From assembly GCA_017469355.1 (NCBI GenBank), contig JAFUGM010000065.1, positions 29,263 to 93,262 on the forward strand: 64,000 bases of DNA. Direction: 5' to 3'. Made by a program: the position numbers and the translations under genes. The notes under the pieces were generated by a model that made no database searches, was not told the origin of the DNA, and saw only the letters and a program-made list of their open reading frames with translations. This document shows, one piece after another, positions 56 to 25,271 of the stretch; within the stretch, counting starts at the first letter, position 1; each line of letters opens with the position of its first letter. The stretch comes from Solobacterium sp. GTDB lineage: Bacteria > Bacillota_I > Bacilli_A > Erysipelotrichales > Erysipelotrichaceae.

Positions 56-1048
56 TCAGTCGTTTGCGCCGCCGAAGAATATTCCAGCGTCCTTTCTCGC
101 GGTTTCCATCAGTTTCATGGTTTCCACCGTCTTTTCCATCATCTTATGGGAGAGTTCCACTTCACCTCTTTCAATCAGTTGATCCATTTTCCGAAACATG
201 TATTCCCTGGTATCGGGATGCTCGACCACATCAATCTTTACCGGTTCTTCCCCGTTCAATGTGAGGTAAATGTCCTGCATGTTTGCGGGCATGTTTTCAA
301 TACGGATGAACCCTTTGGTTCCCTGAATAAATGCCTGTTGCTGACCAGCGCAGTCCTTTGCGGTATAGCTGATTGCCTTGCAGGAACCATAATCCATCAT
401 CAGAACGCCAGAGACATCAATGCCGTTGTATCCGATATTGGGATAGTACTTGAAGGATTCCGGTACTCCAAACAGTTCTACGATCAACGAGATCGGGTAG
501 ATATTCAGATCATAAAGAGCACCGCCTGCAAGCTCTGGGGAGAAGACTGGAAGAACAGTTCCTTCAAGATATTTGTCATATCGGCGGGAGTATTGTGAGT
601 ATGCCATATGAACAATCTTGAGATCCCCGATTCTGGCGATTGCGTCACGTAATGCCTGAAGATTTTCGGTATATCTGGAAGGAGTGCAGTCAAGAAGAAT
701 TACATTCTTTTCCTTCGCGAGGTCTAGCAGTTCTTTCGCTTGAGCACCTGTGGTAGAGAAGGGCTTTTCACAAATGACGTTCTTACCTGCGAGAATGGAT
801 TTCTTCGCAAATTCATAGTGAAGAGAATTGATTACCGCTACATATACGGTGTCAAACGCATCACATGTCAGGAAACGATCAATGTCATAGTCGACATAAT
901 CTACCCCAAACTGTGCAGCGAGTTCTTTCGCCGCATCTACCTGGCGCTCCAGGCACCAGATTCCCTTCACAGTAATGTTGCTTTTGTTCTGAAATGTATT
1001 CAGAAATACGGTGGCGATCATTCCTGATCCGATCATTCCAACTTTCAT
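56..1048 (-). CDS. Gfo/Idh/MocA family NAD(P)-dependent oxidoreductase
   Basis: N-terminal Rossmann motif IGSGMIA, CEKPF motif, GGALYDLNIY; 330 aa. Confidence 0.9.
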   Translation of the reverse strand: MKVGMIGSGMIATVFLNTFQNKSNITVKGIWCLERQVDAAKELAAQFGVDYVDYDIDRFLTCDAFDTVYVAVINSLHYEFAKKSILAGKNVICEKPFSTTGAQAKELLDLAKEKNVILLDCTPSRYTENLQALRDAIARIGDLKIVHMAYSQYSRRYDKYLEGTVLPVFSPELAGGALYDLNIYPISLIVELFGVPESFKYYPNIGYNGIDVSGVLMMDYGSCKAISYTAKDCAGQQQAFIQGTKGFIRIENMPANMQDIYLTLNGEEPVKIDVVEHPDTREYMFRKMDQLIERGEVELSHKMMEKTVETMKLMETARKDAGIFFGGAND

Positions 1049-1105
1049 AGTTCAATCTCCTGTTTATGGGGAAAGGCAGTCAGAACTGCCTTTCCACTGT
1101 GTTTC

Positions 1106-1414
1106 TTACTTTGTGTTCTGCTCGATTGCCTCAATGATCTTTGGACCATTGGTAATGCATGCAGTAGAAGTTACATTGAAGATTTTCTTCCCTTCAAAAC
1201 GATCACGTTCACGAATCGGAATATCCTTTGTGAGAATTACCGCATCTGCTTCCTTTACTTCTTCCGGAGTAATGCGGTTATCAATTCCGAGCGCTCCCTG
1301 TGTTTCAACTTTGATTTCATGCCCGCGTTCTTTTGCGGCCTTCTCAATTCCTTCCGCAGCCATGAAGGTGTGCGCAACACCCGCTGCACATGCGGTTACG
1401 GCTAATAATTTCAT
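1106..1414 (-). CDS. PTS fructose/mannitol-family EIIB component
   Basis: VTACAAGVAHTFMAAE phospho-Cys motif, KVETQG; 102 aa. Confidence 0.93.
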   Translation of the reverse strand: MKLLAVTACAAGVAHTFMAAEGIEKAAKERGHEIKVETQGALGIDNRITPEEVKEADAVILTKDIPIRERDRFEGKKIFNVTSTACITNGPKIIEAIEQNTK

Positions 1415-1860
1415 TCCAGTCCTCCTGTGGCTTCTTCGATGAGAGCCAATAAGTCATCCTCATTGTCAATAGTGAAGAGTTTCTGCTTGAAGTCGTCATA
1501 GATTAACTGACGGGCAAGCTTGGCAAGAATCTTGAGGTGGATGTCACCTCCGGTTTCTGGAGCGGCGATTCCAAATACCAGCCGTATCGGCTGATCTCCG
1601 CCTTCCCAGGGAATTTCTTCTTTCAGCCTCATGAATACAAGACCTGGTTCATTGACGAAGGAGGTGCGTGCATGCGGCATCGCAATTCCATCGCCAAGAT
1701 TGGTAGAAATCTCTGCTTCCCGTTCATACACTGCTTTGCGATATCCTTCAAGATCATTCAGCTTTCCGGCATTAAACATGAGCTGTGCTGAATGAGCAAT
1801 TACTTCATCCTTGTTTTTGAGATCCACATTAATGGAGATCAGATCTTTGTTAATCAGCAT
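1411..1860 (-). CDS. PTS fructose-family EIIA component
   Basis: REAEISTNLGDGIAMPHAR (phospho-His), HLKILAKLAR; 149 aa. Confidence 0.93.
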   Translation of the reverse strand: MLINKDLISINVDLKNKDEVIAHSAQLMFNAGKLNDLEGYRKAVYEREAEISTNLGDGIAMPHARTSFVNEPGLVFMRLKEEIPWEGGDQPIRLVFGIAAPETGGDIHLKILAKLARQLIYDDFKQKLFTIDNEDDLLALIEEATGGLE

Positions 1861-1862
1861 AA

Positions 1863-2981
1863 TTAGAAGTCCAGATCGATTTCTTCACCCTTCTGGGTCA
1901 CAACTGCTTCCTTATCCGCATCAGCTGATACTTCCTTGGAATCATTCTTTGTCTTCTTGAAGAAAGTGATGAAGAGTGCACCGGCAACGATGCCGATGAA
2001 CCATGCGATCAGTGTTCCGAAGATATTGGTGTTTCCTGCAAGATTTGGCAGACCACCCCAGTTTACGATGGAGCCTGCACCTGTAAGACTTACTGCGACA
2101 ACACCGACAATCGAACCAATGATGCAGCCGGCATAGACAATCTTGTCAGAGAGAGCAAGAGGAATTGCACCTTCAGTGATTGCGAACAGTCCGAGGAATC
2201 CTGCGGCAGTTGCTGCTTCCTTCTCATCTTCTGTAAACACAGAAGGCTTCAGGAAACGTGCCAGGCAGCAAACCAGTGGAGGAATTGCGGATGTTGTGAC
2301 AACCATAAGAAGCAGACGCTGAGCAATCATGACTGGTAAGCCAGTTGCAGGATCGATCGTGGAAAGCATTGCGAGAGGAACTGCACCAAGTGCCTTGTTT
2401 CCAAACAGACCGAGGTCGAAGGAACCAAAGAAGCCGATGATGATAGCGAAGAGGATCAGGGACCCTGTGCTGAGGCCCTCTGCAAATGCGGTCAACCAGT
2501 TTGTGAATGCGGTGATGATCGGTCCCAATGTTGTCTGCATCAGCCATGCACCGATGACAGAGATCACTGTTGGAATAACGATGATGGACCAGAGCGCGGA
2601 GAAGTTCTTGTTTACCTTCACCTTTTTCATGAGAAGAGCAATGATACCAACGAAGAAACCTGCTGCGATTCCACCGAGGAATCCTGCCCCGCTGTCCTGA
2701 GCGACCTGTCCAATAATGAGACCCGGACCGATTGCGACTTTGTCAGCGATAGAGTAACCGATGTAAGCGGCGATGACTGCCGGCATCAGATTCAGACCAT
2801 ATTTTCCTAAAATGAAGAAGAAATAGCCGAGTGTGCCGGGAGCTTCCCACGGTGCTGTTCCACCGAACGCGACACCGAGTCCGCAGCAGATACCACCGAC
2901 AACAACGACGGGGATCAGGTAGGAGACGCCGGCCAAGATGTGTTTCTTGGCATCCTTGAAGACATTTAATACTTCTGACAT
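1863..2981 (-). CDS. PTS fructose-family EIIC permease
   Basis: KHILAGVSYLIPVVVVGG, GLFAITEGAIP and many TM segments; start reassigned to ATG 2981 (MSEVL) behind AGAAAGGG. Confidence 0.92.
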   Translation of the reverse strand: MSEVLNVFKDAKKHILAGVSYLIPVVVVGGICCGLGVAFGGTAPWEAPGTLGYFFFILGKYGLNLMPAVIAAYIGYSIADKVAIGPGLIIGQVAQDSGAGFLGGIAAGFFVGIIALLMKKVKVNKNFSALWSIIVIPTVISVIGAWLMQTTLGPIITAFTNWLTAFAEGLSTGSLILFAIIIGFFGSFDLGLFGNKALGAVPLAMLSTIDPATGLPVMIAQRLLLMVVTTSAIPPLVCCLARFLKPSVFTEDEKEAATAAGFLGLFAITEGAIPLALSDKIVYAGCIIGSIVGVVAVSLTGAGSIVNWGGLPNLAGNTNIFGTLIAWFIGIVAGALFITFFKKTKNDSKEVSADADKEAVVTQKGEEIDLDF

Positions 2982-3206
2982 AAACTTTAACCCTTTCTGT
3001 TTTGGCTTAACGCCTTGCACCTTTGTGCCTGTAACCACAAGATATACATGCAGGAAAGGGGTTTCAATACTTCGTTGGGGTGTTGTAAAAGTGTTCAATA
3101 AAAACATGCATGAAGACGAAAAAATCCTTGAACATTTTTACGCTTGCGATTAGATATATTTCTATACGACAACATTTGATGAATAATGATGCCGAAGGAG
3201 GTACGC

Positions 3207-4067
3207 ATGACAATTTCAGAATCTTTGGCAATACAGGAAAACTTTTCTGATTCGGAACGAGAAATCGCGGATTACATTCTTTCCCAAAAAGAGAAGATTC
3301 TGGAACAATCAGTTCATGACATCTGTGATGCCACATTCACATCCACATCTTCCGTGGTAAGACTTTGTCGGAAAATCGGATTCAGCGGGTACAAAGAGTT
3401 TAAAATCCGTTATGCCAGAGAACTGGAGCGTCGGATTGAATCCCTGGATGCAGTAGATCCGGATTTCCCGTTTGGGCCGAAAGATACGGTACTGGATATC
3501 AGTCAAAAGATGAATGTGTTAATGATTAATACATTAAATTCTACGTATGACATTCTTACCAGAAACTCCAAAAGTATCAAACAGGCTGCTGAACTGATCC
3601 TGCATTCCAATCGGATCTCTCTGATTGCAATGGGGGATTCCTACCTGAAAGGACAATTGTTTCAATCCAATATGATGAAGATTGGAAAAGTTGTTCTGAT
3701 GGCGAATGTGTTTGGTGAGAATTATTCTCATATCGATCTTCTGGAACCCAGTGATTGCGCGATTGTTATTTCTTACAGTGGTGATACCAAGCAGGTATAT
3801 GATGCGGCAAAGGTATTGAAACGCAGAGGAGTTCCTCTGATTGTAATAACTGCCAACGCAGAGTCCAAGTGTGGAAAGCTTTCAGGAATCTTGATCGATA
3901 TGCCAAATAAGGAAGAGAAGTGGAAAAAGCAGGCAACCTTTTTTTCTCAGATAGCAACGGAATACATATTGAATGTCATATATTCCTGTATTTATGTCAT
4001 GGACTACGAAAAGAGTACGAACATGCGTCACCGCTCCATTCAAGAATACAGTGACACAAGGTATTGA
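3207..4067 (+). CDS. RpiR/MurR family transcriptional regulator (HTH + SIS)
   Basis: FSDSEREIADYI...SSVVRLCRKIGFSGYKEFK, SIS motif ISYSGDT; RBS AAGGAGG before ATG 3207; divergent from the PTS operon. Confidence 0.92.
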   Translation: MTISESLAIQENFSDSEREIADYILSQKEKILEQSVHDICDATFTSTSSVVRLCRKIGFSGYKEFKIRYARELERRIESLDAVDPDFPFGPKDTVLDISQKMNVLMINTLNSTYDILTRNSKSIKQAAELILHSNRISLIAMGDSYLKGQLFQSNMMKIGKVVLMANVFGENYSHIDLLEPSDCAIVISYSGDTKQVYDAAKVLKRRGVPLIVITANAESKCGKLSGILIDMPNKEEKWKKQATFFSQIATEYILNVIYSCIYVMDYEKSTNMRHRSIQEYSDTRY

Positions 4068-4083
4068 AAAGGAGAATAATGGA

Positions 4084-4839
4084 ATGAACGCAAACATCAA
4101 GGAAATCGGACACGTAAGTTTCAAACTGAAAAACAAAGATGCATTTACAGACTGGTATCAGAATACTCTCGGTCTCAAGGTTGGATTTATTCTGCAGAAG
4201 AATCCCGGTGAGGATTACATTATTTACTACAATCTGAATCGTGGGCAGTTTATAGAGATCTTCCCGGAGACCAGTTTTCTGACCTGGGCGGATTACGATG
4301 GAAACAATCAGGAAGAAAAGTACAGCTATCAGTATGCCGTGCTTGGGACTGGTGAAGGAAAGCGGATGATCGATCCGGAAAACAATAAGTGGATTGTCAA
4401 TGAAGGCGAAAAGTATATTTCCAAAGTTGTTTACCATGTGAAGAATCTGGAACGCTCCATTCACTTCTATACCGATATTTATGAGCTGGATGTGGCACGT
4501 ATCGATGATACTACAGCGCATGTTATAGTGAATGAATATCAGGTGATTGAGCTCCAGGAATACGACTATCCGGAAAATAATTGCACTAATAATAAAGGGC
4601 AATGCCACTATGCTTTGATTGTGAATGACATTGTGAAATTCGCAGAAGACATGGTAAACAAGGGAATTCAGCTTTACCATGGACCGAAGCTGATGAATAA
4701 GCCATACACCGGGCCGTATGTTCTTGAAAAGCACTCGGAGAATACCTACAACTTCTATATGCAGGACCCGGATGATAATGAAATCGAGGTCATGTGCTAC
4801 AGTGAAGACAGCTTCCAGGTGAAGTACGCAATTCAGTAA
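4084..4839 (+). CDS. Two-domain VOC/glyoxalase family protein
   Basis: IGHVSFKLK, YHVKNLERSIHFYTDI, HYALIV, FYMQDPDDNEIE; start at ATG 4084 behind AAGGAG. Confidence 0.8.
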   Translation: MNANIKEIGHVSFKLKNKDAFTDWYQNTLGLKVGFILQKNPGEDYIIYYNLNRGQFIEIFPETSFLTWADYDGNNQEEKYSYQYAVLGTGEGKRMIDPENNKWIVNEGEKYISKVVYHVKNLERSIHFYTDIYELDVARIDDTTAHVIVNEYQVIELQEYDYPENNCTNNKGQCHYALIVNDIVKFAEDMVNKGIQLYHGPKLMNKPYTGPYVLEKHSENTYNFYMQDPDDNEIEVMCYSEDSFQVKYAIQ

Positions 4840-4841
4840 TC

Positions 4842-5753
4842 ATGTTGAAGCTGGCATTGGCAGGCCCGGGATATATTAGCCGCCGTTTTCTTGAAGGAGC
4901 CCGATATCTTAGTGATGTAAAGGTGGTGGCATTAATATCCAGGACACCTGAACGGGTTAAGGCATATGCGGAGAAGTTTGATATTCCTGAAGTGATGACC
5001 TATGATGCGTTTTATCAGAAGGAAGAGATTCCTGCTGTGTACGTATGCACGCCAACCCCATCACACTACGCGATTGTAAAGGCGTGTCTTTCTCATGGGA
5101 AACATGTTCTGTGTGAAAAACCGATGTGTCTTTCCTTGGAGGAAGAAGAGGAGTTGTTCGCATTAGCAGAAGAAAACCATGTGCTTCTTATGGAAGCGTA
5201 TAAAGCACTGTTCACACCCGCATATGACTTGATGAAGGAACTGCTGGATCAACAGGCCATTGGTAATGTGCGGTATGCCACAGGATGTTTTGCGCGCTCA
5301 GGAGATCTGACTCGTCTGCCGGAGCACTTTGGAAGGGATTATGTATATGATCTCAGCTGTTATCCGGTATCGTTTCTGTTATCACTCACAGGTAAGAAAG
5401 TGCAGTCAGCCGTGCACACCGAATTCGAACAGGATGGAAATGTGCTGAGCTCCAGTATTGATATGAGCTGCTCTGACGGATGTATTCTTAACGCCCGATC
5501 CTCTTTTCTCTACACCGATGAGATGGTGCGAATTTATGGTGAAACAGGAATGATTTCGTGTTATCAGTTCTGGCGTCCAAGAGAAGTAATCCTTGAATCG
5601 GAGGAAGGAAGAGAGGCTTTTCCGTTCGAATATGAAAGTGAGTTCACCTTTGAAACACAGCACTTTGCAGATTTGATACGTGATGGCTTTACGGAGAGCC
5701 ACATCGCTTCAAAATCACTTTCTTTAACCTCTTGTAAGGTGTTGACCAGATAA
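4842..5753 (+). CDS. Gfo/Idh/MocA family oxidoreductase
   Basis: LAGPGYIS, VYVCTPTPSH, LCEKPM; 303 aa. Confidence 0.9.
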   Translation: MLKLALAGPGYISRRFLEGARYLSDVKVVALISRTPERVKAYAEKFDIPEVMTYDAFYQKEEIPAVYVCTPTPSHYAIVKACLSHGKHVLCEKPMCLSLEEEEELFALAEENHVLLMEAYKALFTPAYDLMKELLDQQAIGNVRYATGCFARSGDLTRLPEHFGRDYVYDLSCYPVSFLLSLTGKKVQSAVHTEFEQDGNVLSSSIDMSCSDGCILNARSSFLYTDEMVRIYGETGMISCYQFWRPREVILESEEGREAFPFEYESEFTFETQHFADLIRDGFTESHIASKSLSLTSCKVLTR

Positions 5754-11236: not shown

Positions 11237-12451
11237 TCAGTTCCATTCACCTGCCAGAAGGAATTCCCGTATATTTCGGTGTTTGATTCCATTGCGGCTC
11301 ATATCAAACTCATCCAACGACACAACATACTTTGGGAAGTTGTCGCGGATGTTGTCATATGCGCTGAACTCACGCTGAATAGTATCTTCAGATGCCAACA
11401 GATAAGCAACCTGAACATACAGTTTCTCACCACACTTTTCACCGACAAAATCAATCTCCTTATCTCCTGTTCTGCCAACCGTTACCTCATAGCCCCGGCG
11501 CAGCAGCTCCAAATAGACGATGTTTTCCAAAATGAGATTAATGTCTTTTCTATTCCCGCCGTAAACAGCTTCGCGGATTCCGTGGTCCGCAATGTAATAC
11601 TTCTCGTTTGAGGAGAGAATATGCTTACCCTGCAGATCCTCACGCTTTACCTGATAAAACAGATAAGCGTCGCAGCAGTATTTGATGTAGTTCAGGATTG
11701 TCTCGGGCGCGACGATACGGTGCTCGTTTTTGAGAAACCTGGAAAGAGAAGTTGCGGAGAATGGTTGACCTGTATTTGTCATGACATAGGCGATTATTCG
11801 TTCCAGTAAATCCACATCACGGATTTTATTGCGCTTTACAATATCCTTAAGCTGAATGGAATTGAAAAGATCATGAAGGTATTGTCTGGACGGCTCATCC
11901 GCATACTGAATGTTCGCAAGGTAAGGCATACCGCCAGACAGAAGATATTGCTGGAAACACGCCTCAATCGAATTATCCGGTGCAGCAGTTCGATACAGTT
12001 CCAGGAACTCCGCAAAGGAGAACGGATAAATAACGAACTCAACATAGCGTCCTCCAAGGTATGTGGCAAGCTCGCCAGACAACAGCTTTGCGTTAGAACC
12101 GGTGATATAGATGTCGCAGTTAAGTGTGACGCGAAATGAGTTGATACATTTCTCCCAATTCGTGACTTCCTGAATCTCGTCAAAAAAGAGATATACTTTA
12201 CCGTCAATCTCTGCGGCTCTTCTGCAGATTTCTTCATGCAGAGTCTCAGCATTCTGCAGGTGGGAATAGTTCATATCCTCAAAGTTGATGGAAATGAGTT
12301 TTGACGGATCAACACCGGACTCAACAAGTTCCTGTTTAATCTGTTCTAACATGACCGATTTACCGCAACGGTGAATACCGGTCATAACTTTAATTAGATC
12401 CGTCCCGATAAAAGGACGGATACGGCTCATATACATTTCGCGTTTTATCAT
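11237..12451 (-). CDS. AAA+ ATPase (AAA_14 + DUF4143 type)
   Basis: TGIHRCGKS Walker A, FFDEIQ Walker B, ITGSN, KYYIAD, LENIVYLELLRR, EIDF; RBS GAAAGGAGG. Confidence 0.9.
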   Translation of the reverse strand: MIKREMYMSRIRPFIGTDLIKVMTGIHRCGKSVMLEQIKQELVESGVDPSKLISINFEDMNYSHLQNAETLHEEICRRAAEIDGKVYLFFDEIQEVTNWEKCINSFRVTLNCDIYITGSNAKLLSGELATYLGGRYVEFVIYPFSFAEFLELYRTAAPDNSIEACFQQYLLSGGMPYLANIQYADEPSRQYLHDLFNSIQLKDIVKRNKIRDVDLLERIIAYVMTNTGQPFSATSLSRFLKNEHRIVAPETILNYIKYCCDAYLFYQVKREDLQGKHILSSNEKYYIADHGIREAVYGGNRKDINLILENIVYLELLRRGYEVTVGRTGDKEIDFVGEKCGEKLYVQVAYLLASEDTIQREFSAYDNIRDNFPKYVVSLDEFDMSRNGIKHRNIREFLLAGEWN

Positions 12452-12704: not shown

Positions 12705-13580
12705 TTATAGAGTATTACGGGAGCGGTCATCTGCTTGAAGTCGATATTGTCTTGGCGTGATCCCCTGTCTTGCCTTAAATGCGTTGATGAATGCTGCGTC
12801 GGAACTGTATCCGAGGTGTTCCGCAATTTCAGAAATCGTAGTAGATGTTGTCCGTAACATCAGTCTTGCATAGCGGAGTTTTGTGAGCGATACATATTCG
12901 ATCGGCGCATATCCGGTTTCGTTATGAAAACGTCTTGCGAAATGATATGGACTGAGTCCGACCGCGTCCGCAATCATTTCGAGTGTCAGCTTATGAGTGA
13001 TATTCTGACGAATATATTCAATCGCTGAAGTGGAAATCGGGGATAACTGAGAGGCGGAAGGAGTGGACTCTGAAGACTCCGCGCTTCCAAGCTGACACAG
13101 AGTTTCATATACGAGAGTTGACATGCGTACTTCATCGGCGGTCTCCTCATAACAGAGCCGCATCAGAGGTTCTTTGATGTTTGAGTAGATTGTTTCATTG
13201 CGGGAAGAGGAAAAGACAGGGCTATGATTCTGCGCGATCAGATAATCACTCAGTGACTCGGCCTGATTTCCTGAGAAGTGGAAAAACAGAAATTCTCCAT
13301 TCTCTAAGGTTTGATAACTATGTGGATGGGCGCAGTTCAACAGGAGAATCTCTCCCGCGGATGCTTCATATGCGGATCCGTTATATTCCACATTCATATG
13401 GCCAGAGATGAGATAGATGAAAAGAGGCGGTCTTCCACCGTCGTTGGAGACGCGATATCTATGATCTGTGTGGAAATACCCACAACTGATCATGCATAAG
13501 AAGTGAGAACGGAATTCCTCATCCGGGAAAAAGAAGCACATGCTTGAGTCATCCGAAACACCTTTTTCTTTCCACAGCAT
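12705..13580 (-). CDS. AraC family transcriptional regulator
   Basis: N-terminal cupin-like domain; LSPYHFARRF...ISEIAEHLGYSSDAAFINAFK; divergent from nanE. Confidence 0.92.
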   Translation of the reverse strand: MLWKEKGVSDDSSMCFFFPDEEFRSHFLCMISCGYFHTDHRYRVSNDGGRPPLFIYLISGHMNVEYNGSAYEASAGEILLLNCAHPHSYQTLENGEFLFFHFSGNQAESLSDYLIAQNHSPVFSSSRNETIYSNIKEPLMRLCYEETADEVRMSTLVYETLCQLGSAESSESTPSASQLSPISTSAIEYIRQNITHKLTLEMIADAVGLSPYHFARRFHNETGYAPIEYVSLTKLRYARLMLRTTSTTISEIAEHLGYSSDAAFINAFKARQGITPRQYRLQADDRSRNTL

Positions 13581-13736
13581 AGCAGCACCTCCGCAATATT
13601 CACTAATTACGTATCTATAATAAGCCTTAATATCCTAGAAATAGCGCAAGATAAATAAATTATTCCGCAGGAATAGCTATAGTTTCAATTGCGGGGGATG
13701 CGTAAGATGGGAGTCAAGAAACGGAGATTGAAACAG

Positions 13737-14486
13737 ATGACAGTGAATAAAGAAGAATTATTGAACTCCATGCGTGGTGGGCTGATTGTATCCTGCCAGG
13801 TACAGCCGGATGATCCGGTGTATTCCATGGACTTTGTGTTAAAGATGGCGCAGGCTGCCAAATGGGCAGGAGCGGTCGGGATTCGAGCCAACTCCCCGGA
13901 TCAGATTCGTATGATTCGGGAGAATGTGGATCTGCCGATGATCGGATTGTATAAAATCTGGCATGAATCGACAGATGTATTCATTACACCAACATTAGAT
14001 GCCGCAAAGGAAGTTTATGAGGCAGGGGCAGAGATTATTGCACTTGATTGCACAGACCAGATCACTGCCGAAGGAGAACCCGCCTGGCATCTGCTTGAGA
14101 AAGTGAAGAAGGAACTGCCAGACGCATTGATCTTTGCGGATGTTTCCAACTATGATGAAGCTGAACGGGCAGTGAATCTTGGGGCGGATATTGTTGGGCC
14201 GACACTCTATGGATATACCGAGGCTACCCGGCATATTGAATCCCCGGATCTCAGAGAATTCGCCCGGATGTGCAGAGATTTCAAAGATCGAGCATTTATG
14301 GTCATGGAAGGACATATCTATACACCGGAGGATGCGGTAAAAGCGTTGTACCTTGGGGCCGATGCGGTTGTTGTAGGAAGTGCTATCACCCGTCCTCATC
14401 TGACTGCCAGAAGATTTGTGGATCTGATGTCCGGTCTTCAGAATAACTGGCGGGAAGCAGAACGCAGTAAACATAACGTACAGTAA
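13737..14486 (+). CDS. nanE: N-acetylmannosamine-6-phosphate 2-epimerase
   Basis: GGLIVSCQ, GIRANS, LPMIGLYK (catalytic Lys position), EGHIYTPE, VVVGSAITRP; start ATG 13737. Confidence 0.85.
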   Translation: MTVNKEELLNSMRGGLIVSCQVQPDDPVYSMDFVLKMAQAAKWAGAVGIRANSPDQIRMIRENVDLPMIGLYKIWHESTDVFITPTLDAAKEVYEAGAEIIALDCTDQITAEGEPAWHLLEKVKKELPDALIFADVSNYDEAERAVNLGADIVGPTLYGYTEATRHIESPDLREFARMCRDFKDRAFMVMEGHIYTPEDAVKALYLGADAVVVGSAITRPHLTARRFVDLMSGLQNNWREAERSKHNVQ

Positions 14487-14506
14487 AAACGATTGTGGAG
14501 TGAAGT

Positions 14507-16810
14507 ATGGTCAAGTTTGATATTGAGGGAGCGCAGAACGTCGAAGTCAGTAAGCGTATACCCTGTGAAAAATCATTGGTGGAACAGCTGGAGATTATGG
14601 AACGGTATACGGAAACCCATAAGCGCTTCAGTAAGGAGTCTATCTCACGCAGAGAGGTGGAATGCCTGAAAGTTCTTTATCCTGCGTTGTTCCGATCGGT
14701 TGAAGATAGTGACCTGACCGCAGGACGAATGGACTTTCTTCCCATTGGGTTTGGTTGTGTCACTTCGGTTGGAGGAGTTGGACATTATTGTGTATTTGGT
14801 AAACTTCGCGCTTTTCAACGGGATATCGCGGAACTGGGACAGGAGTACTATGACCGTACAGAAGCGCTGTATCAATACTGGGTTGACCATGATCTCAAGA
14901 CCCAATACTGCCGGGAAGTGTTAACGGAGACAACCATTGGTCGTTTTATTGATGTGGAGTATCCACTGATCGCAACGGCACGTCTTTCCGGAATGATGCT
15001 GGATTATCCAAAACTTCTGGATCACGGAATCGGTGGATTACGGACCATCATTACGGAGCGTCTTTCAAAAGACGAGGGAAATGAATTTCTCATGGCATCC
15101 CTCGATTGTCTGGATTTATTTACCACATGTGCTGATGCGGTACGGGAGAAGGTGCTGAAACAAAAAGAAGCTCTTGGTGAAACGAACCCGAAGCGGGCAG
15201 CGCAGTTAACTCGTATGGCTAATGACCTGTTGACCATTCGGAAAGGGAAACCGGAACACTTTACCGAAGCACTGCAGCTGTTCTGGCTGTATGCCTTATT
15301 GGCAGGCGTAATCAACTATGGCCGTCTTGATGATTTTCTTGGGCCGTATCTTGCGAAAGATCTCGACAGTGGGGTGCTCAGTGAGCAGGATGCCTATGAT
15401 CTGTTGAAGTCACTCTGGCAGATGATTGAAAACCGCAGAACGACCGTAAACGGACGTATTATCGTTGGTGGGAAAGGAAGAAAGCACCCGGAAGAAGCCG
15501 ATCGCTTCCTCCATATCGCAATGAAGGTATGTAAGGACTGTCGGTTTGTGGAACCGCAGTTTACCCTCCGTATCGATGAAACAACATCGGAGGAAACCTG
15601 GGCAGAAGCCATGGATGCCTTAGGGGTCGGTGCGACTTATCCTACGATCTATAACGATGAAGTAAATGTGCCTGCTGTTTCGTTTGGTATGCGGGTGGAC
15701 GAAGAAACCGCTGCTCGTTATGTGCCGTTTGGCTGTACGGAATTTGTGCTCTGGGGCCAGAGCACCGGTACTCCGAATATCTGTATTAACCTGCTTAAGA
15801 TTCTGAATATCTATATGAATCGTGGTGTGGATCCGATGGATGGCCAATATAAACTCGGACCATTGAAGGCAAAGGATCTTTCCTCGATCACTAGCTTTGA
15901 TGAGTTCCTGGAAGGATATCAGGAAGTGCTGAATTACTATATGGATCTTGCGGGAGAAGCACAGTATCGTTCTTATGAAATCATGAATGAACACGTCAGT
16001 TTCCTGTTTACCAGTATTCTGATGGATGACTGTATCGAGCGCGGAAAGGCACTGCTGGATGGAGGAGTGCGATATCTAGGCGGCACATGCGAAACCTATG
16101 GAAATATCAATGCGTCAGATTCCCTATGGGCAATTAAGCATCTGGTATTTGATGAACATAAATATACGCTTCCTCAACTGGAAGAAGCGATTCTTGCGGA
16201 CTTTAACGGATATGAACATATCCGCAAAGACTGTCTGGCATGTGATAAGTACGGAAATGATCTTTCCACTGCGGATGATATGGCAAATATGCTGTATGAA
16301 TTTGTGGCGAAGGGAATCCGTGACCGTGGCATCCGTCTTGGTATGCAGTATTTCCTGATTGTCATCAGTAATAACTCTCTGAATACTGAATGGGGTCTTC
16401 GCACCTCTGCCTCCGCCGATGGAAGACATACTGGAGTCTATATGAATCCTGCGAATAATCCGCAGGGAGGTGCCGATAAGAACGGTCCTACTGCCATGTT
16501 AAATTCCCTGGCGAAGTTTGATGCGAAATATCATGGTGGATCGGTTCAGAATATCAAGTTTGCGAAAGGAATGTTCAACCAGAATAAGCCGTTGATTGAA
16601 GGGATGTTCAAGACCTATTTCCGCAAGGGCGGCTGTCATATCATGGTTACTGTGGTGGATAAAGGCGCACTGGAAGATGCGATGATTCATCCTGAAAACT
16701 ATCCGGATCTGATAGTCCGGGTTGCGGGCTATTCCGCGGTATTTGTAAATCTCGATAAGACAGTTCAGAAAGAACTGCTGAGTCGGCATCTCTATGGAGG
16801 AGAAGCGTGA
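14507..16810 (+). CDS. Glycyl radical enzyme (PFL2/dehydratase-like clade), substrate unknown
   Basis: Single-Cys loop VPFGCTEF, glycyl loop LIVRVAGYSAVF, EALQLFW, GRLDDFL; 767 aa; lacks the PFL Cys-Cys pair. Confidence 0.92.
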   Translation: MVKFDIEGAQNVEVSKRIPCEKSLVEQLEIMERYTETHKRFSKESISRREVECLKVLYPALFRSVEDSDLTAGRMDFLPIGFGCVTSVGGVGHYCVFGKLRAFQRDIAELGQEYYDRTEALYQYWVDHDLKTQYCREVLTETTIGRFIDVEYPLIATARLSGMMLDYPKLLDHGIGGLRTIITERLSKDEGNEFLMASLDCLDLFTTCADAVREKVLKQKEALGETNPKRAAQLTRMANDLLTIRKGKPEHFTEALQLFWLYALLAGVINYGRLDDFLGPYLAKDLDSGVLSEQDAYDLLKSLWQMIENRRTTVNGRIIVGGKGRKHPEEADRFLHIAMKVCKDCRFVEPQFTLRIDETTSEETWAEAMDALGVGATYPTIYNDEVNVPAVSFGMRVDEETAARYVPFGCTEFVLWGQSTGTPNICINLLKILNIYMNRGVDPMDGQYKLGPLKAKDLSSITSFDEFLEGYQEVLNYYMDLAGEAQYRSYEIMNEHVSFLFTSILMDDCIERGKALLDGGVRYLGGTCETYGNINASDSLWAIKHLVFDEHKYTLPQLEEAILADFNGYEHIRKDCLACDKYGNDLSTADDMANMLYEFVAKGIRDRGIRLGMQYFLIVISNNSLNTEWGLRTSASADGRHTGVYMNPANNPQGGADKNGPTAMLNSLAKFDAKYHGGSVQNIKFAKGMFNQNKPLIEGMFKTYFRKGGCHIMVTVVDKGALEDAMIHPENYPDLIVRVAGYSAVFVNLDKTVQKELLSRHLYGGEA

Positions 16811-17712
16811 GTTCTCTGCCTGTATTCAATATTGAGCGATTCGCGATTCATGATGGGCCAGGTATCCGCACCGCAGTGTTTCTTCAGGGATGCGGTCTTT
16901 CCTGCAGGTGGTGTGCCAATCCGGAATCACAGAAAATCGGTCCGCATCTGATGTTTCTGAGCCAGAAGTGTATCGGATGCGGTCAATGTGCTGCAGTCTG
17001 CCCCAATGGTGTACCAGTGATTAAAGAGGGGAAAGCGCAGTTTGATCGAGCTCGCTGTGTGAACTGTGGAACCTGTGTGGAAGGATGTCTTGGGGATGCG
17101 CTGAAGATCAGTGGGAAGGCGATGGAGCCGGAGGAAATCTTTGATACGGTGATTCGGGATAAGGACTACTATGACTCAAGTCAGGGCGGGGTGACGCTGT
17201 CTGGGGGAGAAGCGCTCCTGCATATCAACGAGTTGATTCCATTTATTCATCTATGTAGGGAACATCAGATACCTATAGCGACCGAGACCTGTGGATATGT
17301 ATCGGAGTCAATCATGAAAACCGCACTGGACTATATTGACCTCTTCCTGTTTGATTTGAAATCGATGAATCCAGAGCGATTCAGAGAAAATACCGGTGGT
17401 GATCTTTCTGTTGTGCTTCGCAGCTTTCAATTAGTTGCGGAACATTATCCCGAACGGATCATCGTTCGAATTCCCGTCATCCCTGAGTTTAATCACTCGA
17501 TGGAAGACATTAAGGCGATACTTTCCTTTGCGTGCAGTCAAGGTGTTAAGCGGGCGGATCTGCTTCCGTATCATACCCTTGGGATGACAAAGTATCGTCA
17601 ACTTGGTATTCCGTATCCCTATCCGGTAGAAACAGGGTTAAAGGAAGATGACCTTCTGCCCTATCTGAAGATTGGGGAAGAGCTTGGGATGACACTGCGA
17701 ATCGGCGGATAG
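16807..17712 (+). CDS. Glycyl-radical enzyme activating enzyme (radical SAM with ferredoxin insert)
   Basis: HDGPGIRT, GCGLSCRWCANPES, two CxxCxxCxxxC motifs, GGVTLSGGE; 4-nt overlap with the GRE gene. Confidence 0.95.
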   Translation: MSSLPVFNIERFAIHDGPGIRTAVFLQGCGLSCRWCANPESQKIGPHLMFLSQKCIGCGQCAAVCPNGVPVIKEGKAQFDRARCVNCGTCVEGCLGDALKISGKAMEPEEIFDTVIRDKDYYDSSQGGVTLSGGEALLHINELIPFIHLCREHQIPIATETCGYVSESIMKTALDYIDLFLFDLKSMNPERFRENTGGDLSVVLRSFQLVAEHYPERIIVRIPVIPEFNHSMEDIKAILSFACSQGVKRADLLPYHTLGMTKYRQLGIPYPYPVETGLKEDDLLPYLKIGEELGMTLRIGG

Positions 17713-17787
17713 TGCGCCGATCAAAACGATATCGTTGTAAACTTAGAAGGAATCCACGGATTCCTTTTTTGGAAGAGGAGGGAGAAG

Positions 17788-19145: not shown

Positions 19146-20075
19146 TCAATAGTTATTGCCATGCATGGAGTTGTGGACCTTCATATTTTCTACGGAGTTT
19201 CCTTCAGGATGGAAATGTTGGAGATGAGTGATTGACAGCTTTCTGTAATTCAGGGGGCTGACTCCTACCATGGAAGAAAACCGTGTGCTGAACGATGCGT
19301 CATCGCTGAACCCGGTTGCTAGTGCAATCTCATGGACGGACATATCGGTTACTTCAAGGTATTCTTTCGCCTGAGTGATGCGAAGAGAAAGAATGTAGTT
19401 ATATGGAGTCGTTCCCATGTATTTGCGGAACATTCGCATGTAATACGCTCTCGACATGTGTGCAATGTGAAGCAGATCGTCAAATTTTATATGCTCTGTA
19501 AAGTGCTGCTGAATATAGGCGGCACTTTTTTCAATTAATTTGTGATTTCGTGTGAGCGGTTCTTCCGGGCGGAGTACCATACCGGTCAGAAGTGTATGTA
19601 ACAGGAGACTGTCTTCCAGCACAGTAGAGGAAGAAGGGGTTTTTAGATTCTCAAGTATCGTTTCAATATGAGATTTGAAATCAAGGGAACGGACTGGCAC
19701 TGCGGTATTGCGCTGATTCGGGATGAGCAGTTCCTCGATTCCTTTCATTCCTTCTCCATCAAAGTGAATCCAATAGTGTGTCCAGATTCCCACATCAGAT
19801 GCCGTTCGATAGGATTGAGGACTGCGACAATTGAGAACGACTGCCATGCCCGGAAGTAATCGAATGGTTGTATCGTTCTGATGAATGATACCGCATCCTT
19901 CAATGGTAAAAAACAGAAGATAGCTGTCTTTATAATCTCGCTCTGTATAGAAGTGTTCTTTTGCGTAAAAGATTCCTGCTTCGGTACAGAAAAAAGACTG
20001 CTTTAATGCAAGTTCGGTCGGAGTAGTTCGTAACCAGAGGCTCTCCGGTTCAATGTCGAGGTTATATGTCAACAT
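19146..20075 (-). CDS. AraC family transcriptional regulator (RhaR/RhaS-like role)
   Basis: MSRAYYMRMFRK...GFSDDASFSTRF; divergent from rhaB. Confidence 0.9.
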   Translation of the reverse strand: MLTYNLDIEPESLWLRTTPTELALKQSFFCTEAGIFYAKEHFYTERDYKDSYLLFFTIEGCGIIHQNDTTIRLLPGMAVVLNCRSPQSYRTASDVGIWTHYWIHFDGEGMKGIEELLIPNQRNTAVPVRSLDFKSHIETILENLKTPSSSTVLEDSLLLHTLLTGMVLRPEEPLTRNHKLIEKSAAYIQQHFTEHIKFDDLLHIAHMSRAYYMRMFRKYMGTTPYNYILSLRITQAKEYLEVTDMSVHEIALATGFSDDASFSTRFSSMVGVSPLNYRKLSITHLQHFHPEGNSVENMKVHNSMHGNNY

Positions 20076-20184
20076 AATCTGTATACTTTTTCAAAAAAAC
20101 AGAATACTAATCTCGATAGAATCATATAATAACAAGCCCTATACTACAAATAACTCAGAAGAAAATTAATAAAAGGAGGAGGAT

Positions 20185-21609
20185 ATGTCGTCTTATCATC
20201 TTGCGGTGGATATCGGGGCATCTTCCGGTCGACATATGATCGGCTGGCTTGAAGACGGAATGATTCATCTGAAAGAGATTTATCGCTTTGAGAATCGACT
20301 GATTCATAAAAATGATCATCTCTGCTGGGATATTGATCACCTATATGAAGAATTACTTCAGGGATTGAAAGAGTGCAAAAAACAAGGTTATGAGCCTGAG
20401 ACGATGGGAATCGATACCTGGGCTGTCGACTATGTTCTTCTAGATAAAAACGGTAACCGGTTGGGGGACGCAGTGTCTTATCGTGATGACCGAACAAACT
20501 CCATCCGTGATGAATTAGAGAAGAATGGGATTCTATCGTTTGAAGAACATTATGGAATCACAGGAATCCAGTACCAGAAGTTCAATACCTGTTATCAGCT
20601 TCTTGCCTTGAAAAAGGAAAACCCAGAACTTCTGGAACAGGCTGACTTTATGTTGCTGATTCCGGATTACCTGAATTATCTGCTTACTGGAATGAAGGCA
20701 CAGGAATATACCAACGCAACTACAACCGGGCTTGTGAATGCAGAGTTAAAGACCTGGGATGAAGAATTGATCAATCGTCTTGAACTCCCATCACATATCT
20801 TTCTGAATATCTCTCCTGCTGGCACAATACTTGGAGAACTCTCAGAAGAAGTACAAAAAGAGACAGGCATGAATATCAACGTGATTCTGCCCGCAACCCA
20901 TGATACCGGGAGTGCATATCTTGCGGTTCCCGCCGCGGATGAAAATGCTGTATTCCTGTCTTCTGGAACCTGGTCATTACTGGGTGTTGAAAACAGGAAT
21001 GCGATCACCTCAAAGGAAAGCTGTCAAAAGAATTTCACGAATGAAGGTGGGTACGATTATCGATATCGGTATTTGAAGAACATCATGGGTTTATGGATGA
21101 TTCAAAGTATCCGGAGGGAATTAACGGAACCGGATGGTACTCTCCCATCCTTTCCATCCCTGATTGCGGCGGCCAAAGAATTTCGGGAGTTCCCCTCGGT
21201 AATTAATCCTGATGATGATCGCTTCCTGGCTCCAGCTTCCATGATTGAAGAAGTAAAATACGCCTGCGCAGATACCAGGCAGGCAGTGCCAGAACAAATT
21301 GGTGAAGTGATGCAGGTAGTTTATAACTCCCTGGCACAGGATTACGTACGAGCCATTGAAGAATTACAGACATTAACAGGAAGGACATATACGGCACTTC
21401 ACATTGTTGGAGGTGGCAGCCAGGATATGTATCTTAACCAGATGACCGCAAACGCTACAGGGTTGCCTGTTTATGCTGGGCCTGTTGAAGGTACGGCTCT
21501 TGGGAATCTTGTAGCGCAGCTTATTACAACTGGCGAGATTGAAACATTAAATGACGCAAGGCGCATGATAAAACACAGTTTTGAAATCAAGGAGGTATAC
21601 CCGCAATGA
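20185..21609 (+). CDS. rhaB: Rhamnulokinase (FGGY family)
   Basis: LAVDIGASSGR, GIDTWAVDY, HDTGSAY, SSGTWSLLG, FTNEGG, KNIMGLW. Confidence 0.9.
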   Translation: MSSYHLAVDIGASSGRHMIGWLEDGMIHLKEIYRFENRLIHKNDHLCWDIDHLYEELLQGLKECKKQGYEPETMGIDTWAVDYVLLDKNGNRLGDAVSYRDDRTNSIRDELEKNGILSFEEHYGITGIQYQKFNTCYQLLALKKENPELLEQADFMLLIPDYLNYLLTGMKAQEYTNATTTGLVNAELKTWDEELINRLELPSHIFLNISPAGTILGELSEEVQKETGMNINVILPATHDTGSAYLAVPAADENAVFLSSGTWSLLGVENRNAITSKESCQKNFTNEGGYDYRYRYLKNIMGLWMIQSIRRELTEPDGTLPSFPSLIAAAKEFREFPSVINPDDDRFLAPASMIEEVKYACADTRQAVPEQIGEVMQVVYNSLAQDYVRAIEELQTLTGRTYTALHIVGGGSQDMYLNQMTANATGLPVYAGPVEGTALGNLVAQLITTGEIETLNDARRMIKHSFEIKEVYPQ

Positions 21610-22439
21610 CAATATTAGATGTGGAATTTGTAAATGGATTTATTCGCATGTGCAATGACGGCTGGCTTCAGGGCTGGCATGAAAGAAATGGTGGAAATCT
21701 ATCTTATCGTCTCAAGCCGGAAGAAGTTGAAAACGTAAAATCGTTCTTTCATGAACCGGGAGAATGGAAAGCGATAGGCACATCTGTGCCAGCTCTTTCC
21801 GGTGAGTATTTCATGGTGACTGGCTCAGGAAAGTACTTTCGAAATGTCATTCTCGATCCCGAGGATACCACATGCATTATTGAACTGGATGAACAGGGTG
21901 AGAATTATCGGATTTTATGGGGACTGCGGAATGGAGGAAGACCAACCAGTGAACTTCCAAGTCATCTTATGAATCATGAGGTTAAGAAACTCGCAAGCAA
22001 TGATACACATCGTGTGATTTACCATGCGCATACAACGAATGTCATAGCACTTACATTTGTGTTGCCTCTCCAAGATGAAGTGTTTACACGCGAGCTTTGG
22101 GAAATGGCTACAGAATGCCCGGTGGTATTCCCGTCAGGAGTTGGCGTTGTCGGATGGATGGTTCCCGGAGGTCGCGATATTGCGGTCGCTACAAGTGATT
22201 TGATGAAGAAATACGATGTTGCTATATGGGCGCATCATGGAATGTTTGTGTCGGGAGAAAACTTCGATCTGACATTCGGTCTGATGCATACCGTTGAAAA
22301 GAGCGCAGAAATTCTTGTGAAGACGCTCAGTATGAGCCCGAATAAACTTCAAACGATCACACCACAGAATTTCCGGGATCTTGCGAAGGACTTCAATGTC
22401 ACATTGCCGGAACGATTCTTATATGAGAAGGGAGAATAA
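21606..22439 (+). CDS. rhaD: Rhamnulose-1-phosphate aldolase
   Basis: GWHERNGGNLS, PTSELPSH, VIYHAH, WAHHG, VEKSAEI. Confidence 0.93.
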   Translation: MTILDVEFVNGFIRMCNDGWLQGWHERNGGNLSYRLKPEEVENVKSFFHEPGEWKAIGTSVPALSGEYFMVTGSGKYFRNVILDPEDTTCIIELDEQGENYRILWGLRNGGRPTSELPSHLMNHEVKKLASNDTHRVIYHAHTTNVIALTFVLPLQDEVFTRELWEMATECPVVFPSGVGVVGWMVPGGRDIAVATSDLMKKYDVAIWAHHGMFVSGENFDLTFGLMHTVEKSAEILVKTLSMSPNKLQTITPQNFRDLAKDFNVTLPERFLYEKGE

Positions 22440-22441
22440 TC

Positions 22442-23863
22442 ATGTTAGTAGAAACGAAAGCCAGAGTCGGCGTATTCTCAATTGCCCTTGGCGCATATCT
22501 GCCCCAGTTTCCAAGCCTGGTGCCAGAATTTCAGTCGCAGTATGAGGAGTTCAAAAAGACAATTCCCAACACCGTCGATCTGATCGATGGAGGTATTGTC
22601 ACTACGAAAGAACAGTCACAGGCCGCAGGTGATAAATTCCGTGCCGCAGATGTAGATCTTGTGATTATGCAGCTGCTGACGTATGCGACCAGCTATAATA
22701 TGCTGCCGGCAGTACGTGACCTGGATGTACCTGTCGTACTTGTCAACGTACAGAAACTGAAGGCCCCGGACTATGAACATACCGATAATGCAAAATGGCT
22801 TGGTGAGCTTTATGCGTGTGGAGCAGTTGGTGAAATGGTCGCGGACCTGAATCGTGCAGGAAAGCGGCATGCAGTGATTACCGGTGTTGTTGAAGGTGGC
22901 GATCCGGAAGTTCAGAAAGAAATTGAGGAATGGTGTCGTGCTGCTCAGGTAAGACGGCGTTTCAGAGATACCAATCTTGCGCAGATTGGAAGACCATATC
23001 CAGGTATGATGGATCTTTATATCGATGAGACAAATCTGTATCACCGGATGTGGGTTTATACAAAACAGTTTGACTGGGAGAAAATGTGGGCGATTGCGGA
23101 TCACATTACAGATGAAGCGGCAATTCGTGCCAAAGCTGAAGATATCCTGAACACCTTTGAGATCGAAGGAGATTCATCGATTGAAACGGTGTGGGAGATG
23201 GCGAAGTACGTTGTGGCGTTTGAACAGTGGGTGAAAGACGAACAGATTGGTTTGATTGCGTCTCATTATGATGGATTTGCGCAAGGCGTCGCCGGGAAAC
23301 TGGACAGTATGTTAATTCCTGCCTTCTCCATGCTGATTAAACAGGGGACTGCATGTGCGGTAGAAGGTGATATCAAAGTTGCGATGGCAATGTCCATACT
23401 TAAAACCATTTCCGGAACCGGTCAGCTTTCAGAAATGTATTCGATCGACTTCAATGAAGACATTTGTATCATCGGTCACAGTGGCAGTGGAGACGCGGAT
23501 ATTTCACAAGCCCACAAACCTACAATGAAGGTGGTTCCAGTCTTTCATGGAAAAACAGGAGGAGGATATCTCACACAGTTCTATCCACCTGCTGGACCAG
23601 TCACTTACCTTGCGATCACTCAGGACCGGGATGGACACTTTAAATTTGTTGCGGCAGAAGGAGTGAATGAAGAAGGACCTATATTCATGTTTGGTGATAC
23701 GAATATGCGTACGAGATTCTCTTGCGGAGCCAGAGAATTCATGAATAAATGGAATGAAGCAGGGCCTACGCATCATATGGCCGCCGCAGTCGGAAGGCAT
23801 ATTGATACCATTCAAAAGGTCGCAAAGATCTTTAATATACCATGTGAAGTGATTGTTCGATGA
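22442..23863 (+). CDS. L-fucose/L-arabinose isomerase family sugar isomerase
   Basis: IGRPYPGMMD, CAVEGD, SEMY, GHSG, GPTHHMA motifs of the FucI/AraA fold; 473 aa. Confidence 0.8.
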   Translation: MLVETKARVGVFSIALGAYLPQFPSLVPEFQSQYEEFKKTIPNTVDLIDGGIVTTKEQSQAAGDKFRAADVDLVIMQLLTYATSYNMLPAVRDLDVPVVLVNVQKLKAPDYEHTDNAKWLGELYACGAVGEMVADLNRAGKRHAVITGVVEGGDPEVQKEIEEWCRAAQVRRRFRDTNLAQIGRPYPGMMDLYIDETNLYHRMWVYTKQFDWEKMWAIADHITDEAAIRAKAEDILNTFEIEGDSSIETVWEMAKYVVAFEQWVKDEQIGLIASHYDGFAQGVAGKLDSMLIPAFSMLIKQGTACAVEGDIKVAMAMSILKTISGTGQLSEMYSIDFNEDICIIGHSGSGDADISQAHKPTMKVVPVFHGKTGGGYLTQFYPPAGPVTYLAITQDRDGHFKFVAAEGVNEEGPIFMFGDTNMRTRFSCGAREFMNKWNEAGPTHHMAAAVGRHIDTIQKVAKIFNIPCEVIVR

Positions 23864-24048: not shown

Positions 24049-24074
24049 ATATACTGAATTTGGAGATATACATC

Positions 24075-25271
24075 ATGAACATTATTGAGAGAACGGAATA
24101 CCTGGATAAGCTGATTGGCTGTATCGGTACACCTGACATTAAAGTGATAACCGGAATCAGACGATCTGGGAAATCGATTTTAATATCTCAGTTTTCTGAT
24201 TATCTGAAGAAATCAACGAAGAATTTAAACCTGATATACATAGATCTTCAACAATTGGATTATGTGGATCTTCTGGAGTATAAAAGTCTTCATGACTTTT
24301 GTGTTGGGAAACACAAAAAGAATAAAACCAATGTTTTGATCATTGATGAGGTTCAGCTTTGCGATGGTTTTGAAAAGGCAATTAACAGCCTTCATTCCAA
24401 AAGAATATATGACATCTATTTGACTGGCTCAAACGCATTCTTGTTAAGCAGTGATCTTGCGACACTGTTTACTGGAAGGACAATTGAGGTAGAGGTTCTG
24501 CCATTCTCATTTTCGGAGTATCTTCAGTATTTTGAAAGAAATGATATTCAAGAAGCATTTGATGATTATTTTAAGATTGGTGGGATGCCCGGCTCATATG
24601 AGTATCATGACGAACGTAGACGATATGACTACATTACGGATGTTTATCGCACTATTATCGAACGAGATTTGTTCCAAAAATATAGAATAAGGAACAAGAG
24701 AGAACTGATGCAGGTGTCAGACTTCATGTTGGATAACATTTCAAACTTAACGTCACCTCATAATATCTGCGTGGAGCTTAACAAAGACTATAGTCAAATT
24801 ACAGAAAAGACTATTTCAAAGTATATTTCGTATCTGGAAAGATCTTTCGTTTTGTATGTGGCTAATAGATATGATCTGAAAGGGAAGAAATATCTCAGAA
24901 GCAGTAAAAAGTATTATGTGGCAGATCATGGAATACGGTATGCCGTTTTGGGAAGCAGAAATCTGGATTATGGCAGGACGTATGAAAACATCGTTTATCT
25001 TGAACTGAGAAGACGTGGGTACGATGTATATGTAGGCAAGCTCTATCAGAAAGAGATCGATTTCGTGGCGACGAAGCAGAGCGAAAAACTCTATATACAG
25101 GTTTCTGATGATATTTCGCAGGAAAGCACGTTAAAAAGGGAATATGAACCACTTCTAGCGATTAAAGATGGTTACCAAAAGATCATAATTGCAAGAACAA
25201 GGCATCCGATGTACCAATACGAAGGTATCAAGATTTTTGATATTGCAAGATGGCTGGCAGGCAACGATTAG
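24075..25271 (+). CDS. AAA+ ATPase (AAA_14 + DUF4143 type)
   Basis: TGIRRSGKS, IIDEVQ, LTGSN, YENIVYLELRRR, EIDF; start ATG 24075 behind GGAG. Confidence 0.9.
   Translation: MNIIERTEYLDKLIGCIGTPDIKVITGIRRSGKSILISQFSDYLKKSTKNLNLIYIDLQQLDYVDLLEYKSLHDFCVGKHKKNKTNVLIIDEVQLCDGFEKAINSLHSKRIYDIYLTGSNAFLLSSDLATLFTGRTIEVEVLPFSFSEYLQYFERNDIQEAFDDYFKIGGMPGSYEYHDERRRYDYITDVYRTIIERDLFQKYRIRNKRELMQVSDFMLDNISNLTSPHNICVELNKDYSQITEKTISKYISYLERSFVLYVANRYDLKGKKYLRSSKKYYVADHGIRYAVLGSRNLDYGRTYENIVYLELRRRGYDVYVGKLYQKEIDFVATKQSEKLYIQVSDDISQESTLKREYEPLLAIKDGYQKIIIARTRHPMYQYEGIKIFDIARWLAGND

Follow-up and report, generated by a model that had tools for sequence, protein, structure and literature searches.

A widespread gene cassette joins a NanE-like epimerase to an uncharacterised glycyl radical enzyme in Solobacterium sp. 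and in genomes of three phyla

What does a glycyl radical enzyme (GRE) do when its gene is joined to that of a sugar-phosphate epimerase? The question is raised by a locus in a 64,000-nucleotide stretch of contig JAFUGM010000065.1 of Solobacterium sp. (the window), where the gene of an AraC-family regulator diverges from genes for a NanE-like epimerase, a GRE and the radical SAM (S-adenosylmethionine) enzyme predicted to activate it. An earlier reading of this DNA, made from the sequence alone, had the GRE acting on an N-acyl-hexosamine phosphate or a related sugar phosphate, perhaps eliminating the amide or water in place of NagA and NagB. We put the probability at about 70% that the locus is an AraC-controlled three-gene catabolic operon, with a dedicated NanE-like C2 epimerase and a new-clade GRE as its core. 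The operon probably supplies a so far undescribed radical step by which a phosphorylated hexose is broken down. No NanE-linked GRE was described in the literature covered by targeted searches or in a 2026 GRE review. We know of no other GRE clade that is linked to a sugar-phosphate epimerase.

The sequence-only reading had called four open reading frames (ORFs), the AraC gene divergent from the other three, and all of them were recovered at the same positions (Table 1). Its 20-nt gap and 4-nt overlap were also read in the sequence. The 20-nt spacer between the NanE-like and GRE genes holds a GGAG ribosome-binding site, and the GRE and activase genes are joined by a GTGA stop/start overlap. An intrinsic-terminator-like hairpin 3' of the activase gene was read directly from the sequence; the consensus scan gave no such entry. 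The tight spacing, the overlap and the hairpin therefore indicate a three-gene operon. The single Cys in GCTEF, the intact RVAGY loop and the two-cluster ferredoxin insert of the activase were all present. Since homologues are 246–255 aa long, the true start of the NanE-like protein is probably ATG 13716 or 13737. In the putative control region between the divergent genes, a consensus scan found no excess of promoter-like matches over shuffled sequences.

Relatives of the locus were compared by clustering all ORFs of 80 fetched loci. Members of the GRE family from the phyla Bacillota, Bacteroidota and Spirochaetota were 61–81% identical, with matches in 260 species-level genomes. Carriers were found among Lachnospiraceae, Oscillospiraceae, Erysipelotrichales, Christensenellales, Listeria immobilis and spirochaetes, and among many Bacteroidales (Parabacteroides, Dysgonomonas, Tannerella, Alistipes and Prevotella); one Parabacteroides protein cluster had 4,796 metagenomic members. 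Among the carriers available in culture are Parabacteroides distasonis, Mediterraneibacter hominis NSJ-55, Catenisphaera adipataccumulans DSM 25799 and Clostridium lacusfryxellense DSM 14205. Among the 80 loci, an activase gene adjoined the GRE gene in 76, a NanE-like gene was present in 68–69, a ROK kinase gene in 50 and an AraC gene in 40–45, with a DeoR regulator in some of the others. NanE lay within 10 kb of the GRE in 68 of 79 related loci from three phyla, and in 51 of the 75 loci with room for it the gene stood immediately upstream on the same strand. Five of the 11 loci without NanE were truncated contigs. The adjacency of NanE and GRE is far beyond chance, and the cassette is real, widespread in gut and rumen bacteria, and uncharacterised. 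The sequence-only reading would have been abandoned had the nanE linkage not been conserved in other genomes; the co-occurrence check found it kept.

A fortuitous adjacency, or an operon decaying without a joint function, is close to negligible as an explanation. It could draw on the lack of a kinase or transporter gene in the operon of the window and on a broken copy in Candidatus Allofournierella pullicola (L086:10001-12286), whose family GRE carries an in-frame stop codon and is possibly a pseudogene or the result of a sequencing error. Against it stand the three intact genes with functional motifs and a linkage that is kept in three phyla under strong purifying selection.

The GRE matched PF02901 (PFL-like) with 388 bits and PF01228 (Gly_radical) with 92 bits. 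Its FGCTEF segment holds Cys410 with Glu412 at +2, forming a CXE motif, and Gly741 lies in RVAGYS. Both Cys410 and Glu412 were invariant among 36 family members. The CXE motif is common to all eliminase and isomerase GREs (PMC13450708). The activase scored 316 bits on TIGR02494 (cut-off 174) and has the radical SAM motif CGLSCRWC (CX3CX2C) and two ferredoxin clusters, CIGCGQCAAVCP and CVNCGTCVEGC, each a CX2CX2CX3C motif.

As shown by NCBIfam equivalog models, the GRE scored far below the cut-offs for HypD (265 against 1100 bits), CutC (240 against 1050), HpfG (236 against 1000) and PflD (NF007437, 223 against 1109). Over the CutC, HypD, HpfG/HpsG and arylacetate decarboxylase models together it reached 197–265 bits, with cut-offs of 1000–1150. 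The broad PFL2/glycerol-dehydratase model TIGR01774 gave 298 bits (cut-off 678). Two further PFL2-type GREs of the same genome, 42% identical to PflD and 38% to YbiW, reached 752 and 713 bits on that model, and the GRE of the window is a third, distinct GRE of its host. An AlphaFold (AF2) model of the GRE (predicted local distance difference test score 87, predicted template-modelling score 0.89) was searched with Foldseek, and the eliminase and isomerase GREs matched it at template-modelling (TM) scores of 0.80–0.85 and 20–25% identity, with no preferred relative. The earlier description of the GRE as unassigned thus stood. With scores so far below the cut-offs, it did not fall into a characterised class whose substrate residues it keeps; on sequence comparison it is placed outside all characterised classes, in a new clade.

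The best match in both sequence and fold was to the B12-independent glycerol dehydratase/1,2-propanediol dehydratase group of 1,2-eliminases (TM 0.84), which has the CXE motif in common with the GRE. The glycerol dehydratase structure 1r8w was the closest solved relative at 233 bits, and YbiW and PflD gave about 179–207 bits. Identity to these dehydratases was 23–25%. The residues by which glycerol dehydratase contacts its substrate, His164, Ser282 and Tyr339, have Gly or a deletion as their counterpart in the GRE; unlike the glycerol and propanediol dehydratases, the operon of the window is without a microcompartment and without an aldehyde or alcohol dehydrogenase. CutC and HplG resemble the GRE in CXE motif and fold and set a precedent for radical C–N cleavage beside a hydroxyl carbon, but identity to them was 21–23% and their gene context is different.

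Other close known systems are E. coli YbiW and PflD, the C–O lyases of 1,5-anhydroglucitol-6-phosphate (AG6P) and 1,5-anhydromannitol-6-phosphate (AM6P), known as the GRE isomerases of anhydroglycolysis. They resemble the system in the window in GRE fold (TM 0.80–0.82), single Cys with Glu at +2, RVAGYS loop and two-cluster activase; a sugar 6-phosphate is the likely substrate in the window too, and an AraC-type regulator is again close by. Unlike them, the window GRE family is without an FSA aldolase partner and has a near-obligatory NanE-like epimerase instead. When aligned to YbiW and PflD (26–27% identity), the family was found to be without three loop segments present in both E. coli enzymes. 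Two of the deleted loops span the sites of Ser282 and Tyr339, which contact the substrate in glycerol dehydratase, and the third adjoins His164, which aligns to Gly162. In the alignment to glycerol dehydratase, family-invariant residues including Arg159 and Arg317 fall at or near the deleted-loop sites. The alignment suggests that the pocket of the GRE is wider and anion-binding.

These comparisons bear on a reading in which the GRE is a third enzyme of anhydroglycolysis, opening AG6P, AM6P or a related 1,5-anhydro-alditol 6-phosphate so as to form a 1-deoxy-ketose phosphate, on which the NanE-like barrel would work as an aldolase substitute or isomerase and not as a C2 epimerase. In its favour is the CXE motif in common with YbiW and PflD, to date the only GREs known to act on sugar phosphates. 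About 30 loci are flanked by GFO_IDH_MocA oxidoreductases, the family to which 1,5-anhydrofructose reductase belongs; a Frw-type phosphotransferase system (PTS) adjoins the GRE in one locus (L087) and lies about 10 kb upstream in the window; and the missing FSA aldolase would leave a role for the NanE-like protein. We nevertheless regard this reading as improbable, given the low score on the PflD model and the three missing loop segments, two of them at the active site. The host genome already has PflD-like and YbiW-like GREs, FSA and GldA. NanE chemistry requires an open-chain aldehyde, which anhydro-alditols do not have, and the oxyanion-stabilising NanE residues are invariant. The linked ManA, GH92 and phosphohexomutase genes would be left unexplained.

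A relay, in which the GRE makes 1,5-anhydrofructose-6-phosphate, which, once reduced, would be opened by a PflD/YbiW-type enzyme, was rejected as a general scheme, as 17 of 30 carrier genomes are without another PflD-like GRE. In the L087 locus, from Candidatus Epulonipiscium (L087:1934-4210 and flanks), the family GRE adjoins an FrwC-type PTS IIC, one activase and a YbiW-like GRE; it was the only locus seen with the two GRE types adjacent.

The NanE-like protein scored 165 bits on PF04131 and 238 bits on NF002231 (cut-off 189). It belongs to the same TIM barrel family as the canonical NanE of S. aureus (6VVA) and C. perfringens (4UTT) and keeps the VGSAITR motif; unlike canonical NanE, its clade is linked to a GRE and not to nanA/nanK. 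The catalytic set, the acetamide contacts and the signature xPxIGIxK plus a basic residue were taken from the S. aureus NanE structure paper (PMC8482478). Gln11, Arg40, Lys63, Asp124, Glu180 and Arg208 (S. aureus numbering) were kept in all 68 GRE-linked copies, and so were the equivalents of the acetamide-contacting Tyr149 and Phe72. In place of the signature we found LPMIGLYK-I, the residue after Lys being Ile in 65 of the 68. The clade reads K-I-W-[HN] against the canonical K-[KR]-x-Y, and E-G-H against the canonical E-G-N. The copy in the window was 65–80% identical to other GRE-linked copies and 34–38% identical to E. coli NanE and to the canonical copy of its own genome. By residue pattern and identity, the GRE-linked NanE-like proteins group as a separate clade.

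In the 62 loci with all three core genes (L008–L087), mean pairwise identity was 74% for the NanE-like protein, 69% for the GRE, 47% for the activase, about 50% for the ROK kinase and about 27% for the regulator. The joint high conservation of the NanE-like protein and the GRE is therefore a pointer to their tight functional coupling, and it hints at a coupling that is possibly physical or based on channeling.

Genes linked to the cassette bear on the sugar that it serves. The linked ROK kinase scored 263 and 249 bits on TIGR00744 (cut-off 260) and 130–140 bits on NanK models (cut-offs 283 and 450); these scores mark it as glucokinase-like, not NanK- or NagK-like. No orthologous ROK kinase was found in the host genome. 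In rumen and gut Oscillospiraceae the core is part of an operon that also encodes a solute-binding protein, a GH1 beta-glucosidase, a GH5_4 endoglucanase that is secreted, an HAD phosphatase and a GH94-like protein of 740 aa, which has the phosphorylase fold of that family (TM 0.6–0.7) at just 13–16% identity. Three GH92 alpha-mannosidases flank the core in Cryptobacteroides, a phosphohexomutase in Alistipes and a true ManA in at least 5 loci. A mannose-family PTS does so in Listeria and in one metagenome-assembled genome of Clostridiales. AP_endonuc_2 barrels occurred at roughly 15–20 loci, and GFO_IDH_MocA oxidoreductases were as frequent as given above. Ten loci from Bacteroidota have a 3-keto-disaccharide-hydrolase operon across the AraC gene. 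No dedicated downstream enzyme recurred, with FSA aldolase (FsaA/FsaB) and NagA each within 10 kb in none of the 80 loci, and the GlcNAc-releasing families GH18, GH20 and GH84 were not seen in the loci. The glucokinase-like ROK, the gluco/manno glycosidases, ManA, the PTS and the absence of NagA thus define a linked context of gluco/manno hexose and not of amino sugar.

A sialic acid pathway was ruled out, as the neighbourhood holds no nanA or nanK, NanA occurred in 1 of the 80 loci and the ROK kinase was not NanK-like. The report of the sequence-only reading that nanA, nanK, nagA, nagB, shell proteins and alcohol or aldehyde dehydrogenases are missing nearby was borne out, none being found in the operon neighbourhood. 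Its proposal that the GRE works in place of NagA and NagB did not survive. The host genome has NagA and NagB as well as an FSA-like aldolase and GldA, so that the GRE fills no NagA/NagB gap, and NagA was above its cut-off in 23 of 30 carrier genomes.

The amino-sugar part of that proposal can be put without NagA and NagB: the GRE would cleave the C2–N bond of N-acetylmannosamine 6-phosphate (ManNAc-6P), N-acetylglucosamine 6-phosphate (GlcNAc-6P) or another N-acyl variant, with NanE supplying the correct C2 epimer. For instance, hydrogen abstraction beside the amide and ring opening would give an N-acyl-imine, hydrolysed to fructose-6-phosphate and acetamide, a product that would require no extra enzyme. 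We consider this rather unlikely. The NanE-like protein does score above NanE cut-offs and keeps the six catalytic residues and both acetamide contacts, C–N cleaving GREs exist (CutC, HplG), and some loci have a GlmM-like mutase, a mannose-family PTS or, in three cases, NagB-like genes. Against these points, the linked kinase is far from the NanK models, no GH18, GH20, GH84, nanA or nagA is linked, and the linked glycosidases belong to beta-glucosidase, endoglucanase and alpha-mannosidase types. The NagA and NagB of the host, and NagA in most carriers, leave no gap to fill, and the basic residue of the signature is nearly always replaced by Ile. A sugar phosphate is a plausible substrate, as the sequence-only reading had it, and the kept NanE residues agree with its N-acyl-hexosamine version; the kinase and glycosidases, being of gluco/manno type, speak against that version.

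For the three-gene catabolic operon that we favour, the following sequence of steps is proposed. A gluco- or manno-configured hexose derivative would be imported and phosphorylated at O6, as the gene context suggests, by the glucokinase-like ROK in most relatives and probably by a PTS here and in some others. The NanE-like protein would enolise the open-chain aldose 6-phosphate through its conserved Lys/Glu machinery, so equilibrating the C2 epimers, one of which would feed the GRE. Homology shows the activase to be the enzyme that puts the radical on Gly741. The conserved motifs indicate the class of the GRE chemistry: from the CXE motif, the Cys410 thiyl would take a hydrogen from a hydroxyl-bearing carbon while Glu412 accepts the proton of that hydroxyl; the ketyl radical would then expel a beta substituent by C–O or C–N cleavage. 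The product would be a deoxy-keto sugar phosphate or a ring-opened isomer, usable by housekeeping enzymes.

As the substrate, a neutral gluco/manno hexose derivative is the foremost candidate, at somewhat less than even odds. An N-acyl-hexosamine 6-phosphate comes well behind it, and an anhydro-alditol phosphate and something else altogether are both less likely again, to the same degree. Tentatively, the NanE-like protein and the GRE may work as a coupled pair with a reaction class new for GREs, the radical cleavage or isomerisation of an aldohexose or hexosamine 6-phosphate capable of an open chain. Examples would be the conversion of ManNAc-6P to fructose-6-phosphate and acetamide, or a dehydration of the mannose-6-phosphate type.

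Several points weigh against a dedicated epimerase–GRE operon of this kind. Six loci with full flanks have no NanE nearby, and the kinase and transporter genes missing from the operon of the window count here too. The order of epimerase before GRE is inferred, as is the substrate. The genome of the window also holds two more NanE-like copies of the same clade, beside DeoR genes and without a GRE, so the epimerase may have an additional role independent of the GRE. These DeoR and NanE-like pairs lie at C42:5366-6977 and C20:37483-39094, and their epimerases are 69% and 57% identical to the copy in the window. In the C20 copy Thr replaces Arg40 and Asn replaces Asp124, and this copy is probably inactive, judged by these residues.

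New GRE functions have revealed gut chemistry before, among them trimethylamine formation from choline, hydroxyproline use, sulfite release and anhydroglycolysis. With its substrate identified, the clade would bring a new sugar pathway into models of fermentation in gut and rumen, and a new reaction into radical enzymology. If the coupled pair is real, gut anaerobes, including the abundant Parabacteroides distasonis, would have a way, so far overlooked, of using a common sugar from the diet or the host.

Table 1. Features of the operon and its flanks, with positions in the window.
Feature	Position	Strand	Remarks
AraC-family regulator	12705-13580	minus	Domains HTH_AraC, HTH_18, AraC_binding; divergent from the operon
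Putative divergent intergenic control region	13581-13736	none	Function predicted from sequence
NanE-like hexose-6-phosphate 2-epimerase ORF	13689-14486	plus	PF04131 and NF002231 above cut-offs
GRE, uncharacterised clade	14507-16810	plus	767 aa; Cys410-x-Glu412, Gly741
GRE-activating radical SAM enzyme, two-cluster ferredoxin insert	16807-17712	plus	TIGR02494
Intrinsic-terminator-like hairpin	17747-17770	plus	9 bp, AAGGAATCC-ACG-GGATTCCTT, then T-run

A sugar locus at 56-5753 of the window lies about 7 kb from the AraC gene of the operon. It comprises a GFO_IDH_MocA gene (56-1048, minus strand), PTS IIB (1106-1414) and IIA (1411-1860), a Frw-like IIC (1863-3107, 35% identical to E. coli FrwC), an RpiR gene (3186-4067), a VOC/glyoxalase-fold protein (3973-4839) and a second GFO_IDH_MocA gene (4842-5753). 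Because GFO genes and Frw-type PTS recur beside the cassette elsewhere, it is possible that this locus serves as a supply route for the cassette.

Other features of the window were noted. A second AraC gene, at 19146-23863, is divergent from genes for an FGGY kinase, a class II aldolase and a weak L-arabinose/L-fucose-isomerase-like protein, and the group looks like a rhamnose/fucose-type deoxy-sugar operon. Two AAA_14/DUF4143 ATPase paralogues (11237-12451 and 24060-25271) bracket a 12-kb stretch that holds both AraC-controlled operons, and the pair possibly marks an acquired island. A 381-aa ORF at 49657-50802, between pcrA and an HAD/ligA pair, matches the N-terminal helical region of the GRE over just some 150 residues (PFL-like 161-316) and has neither the Cys loop nor the glycyl loop; its predicted product is a GRE-fragment-like protein.

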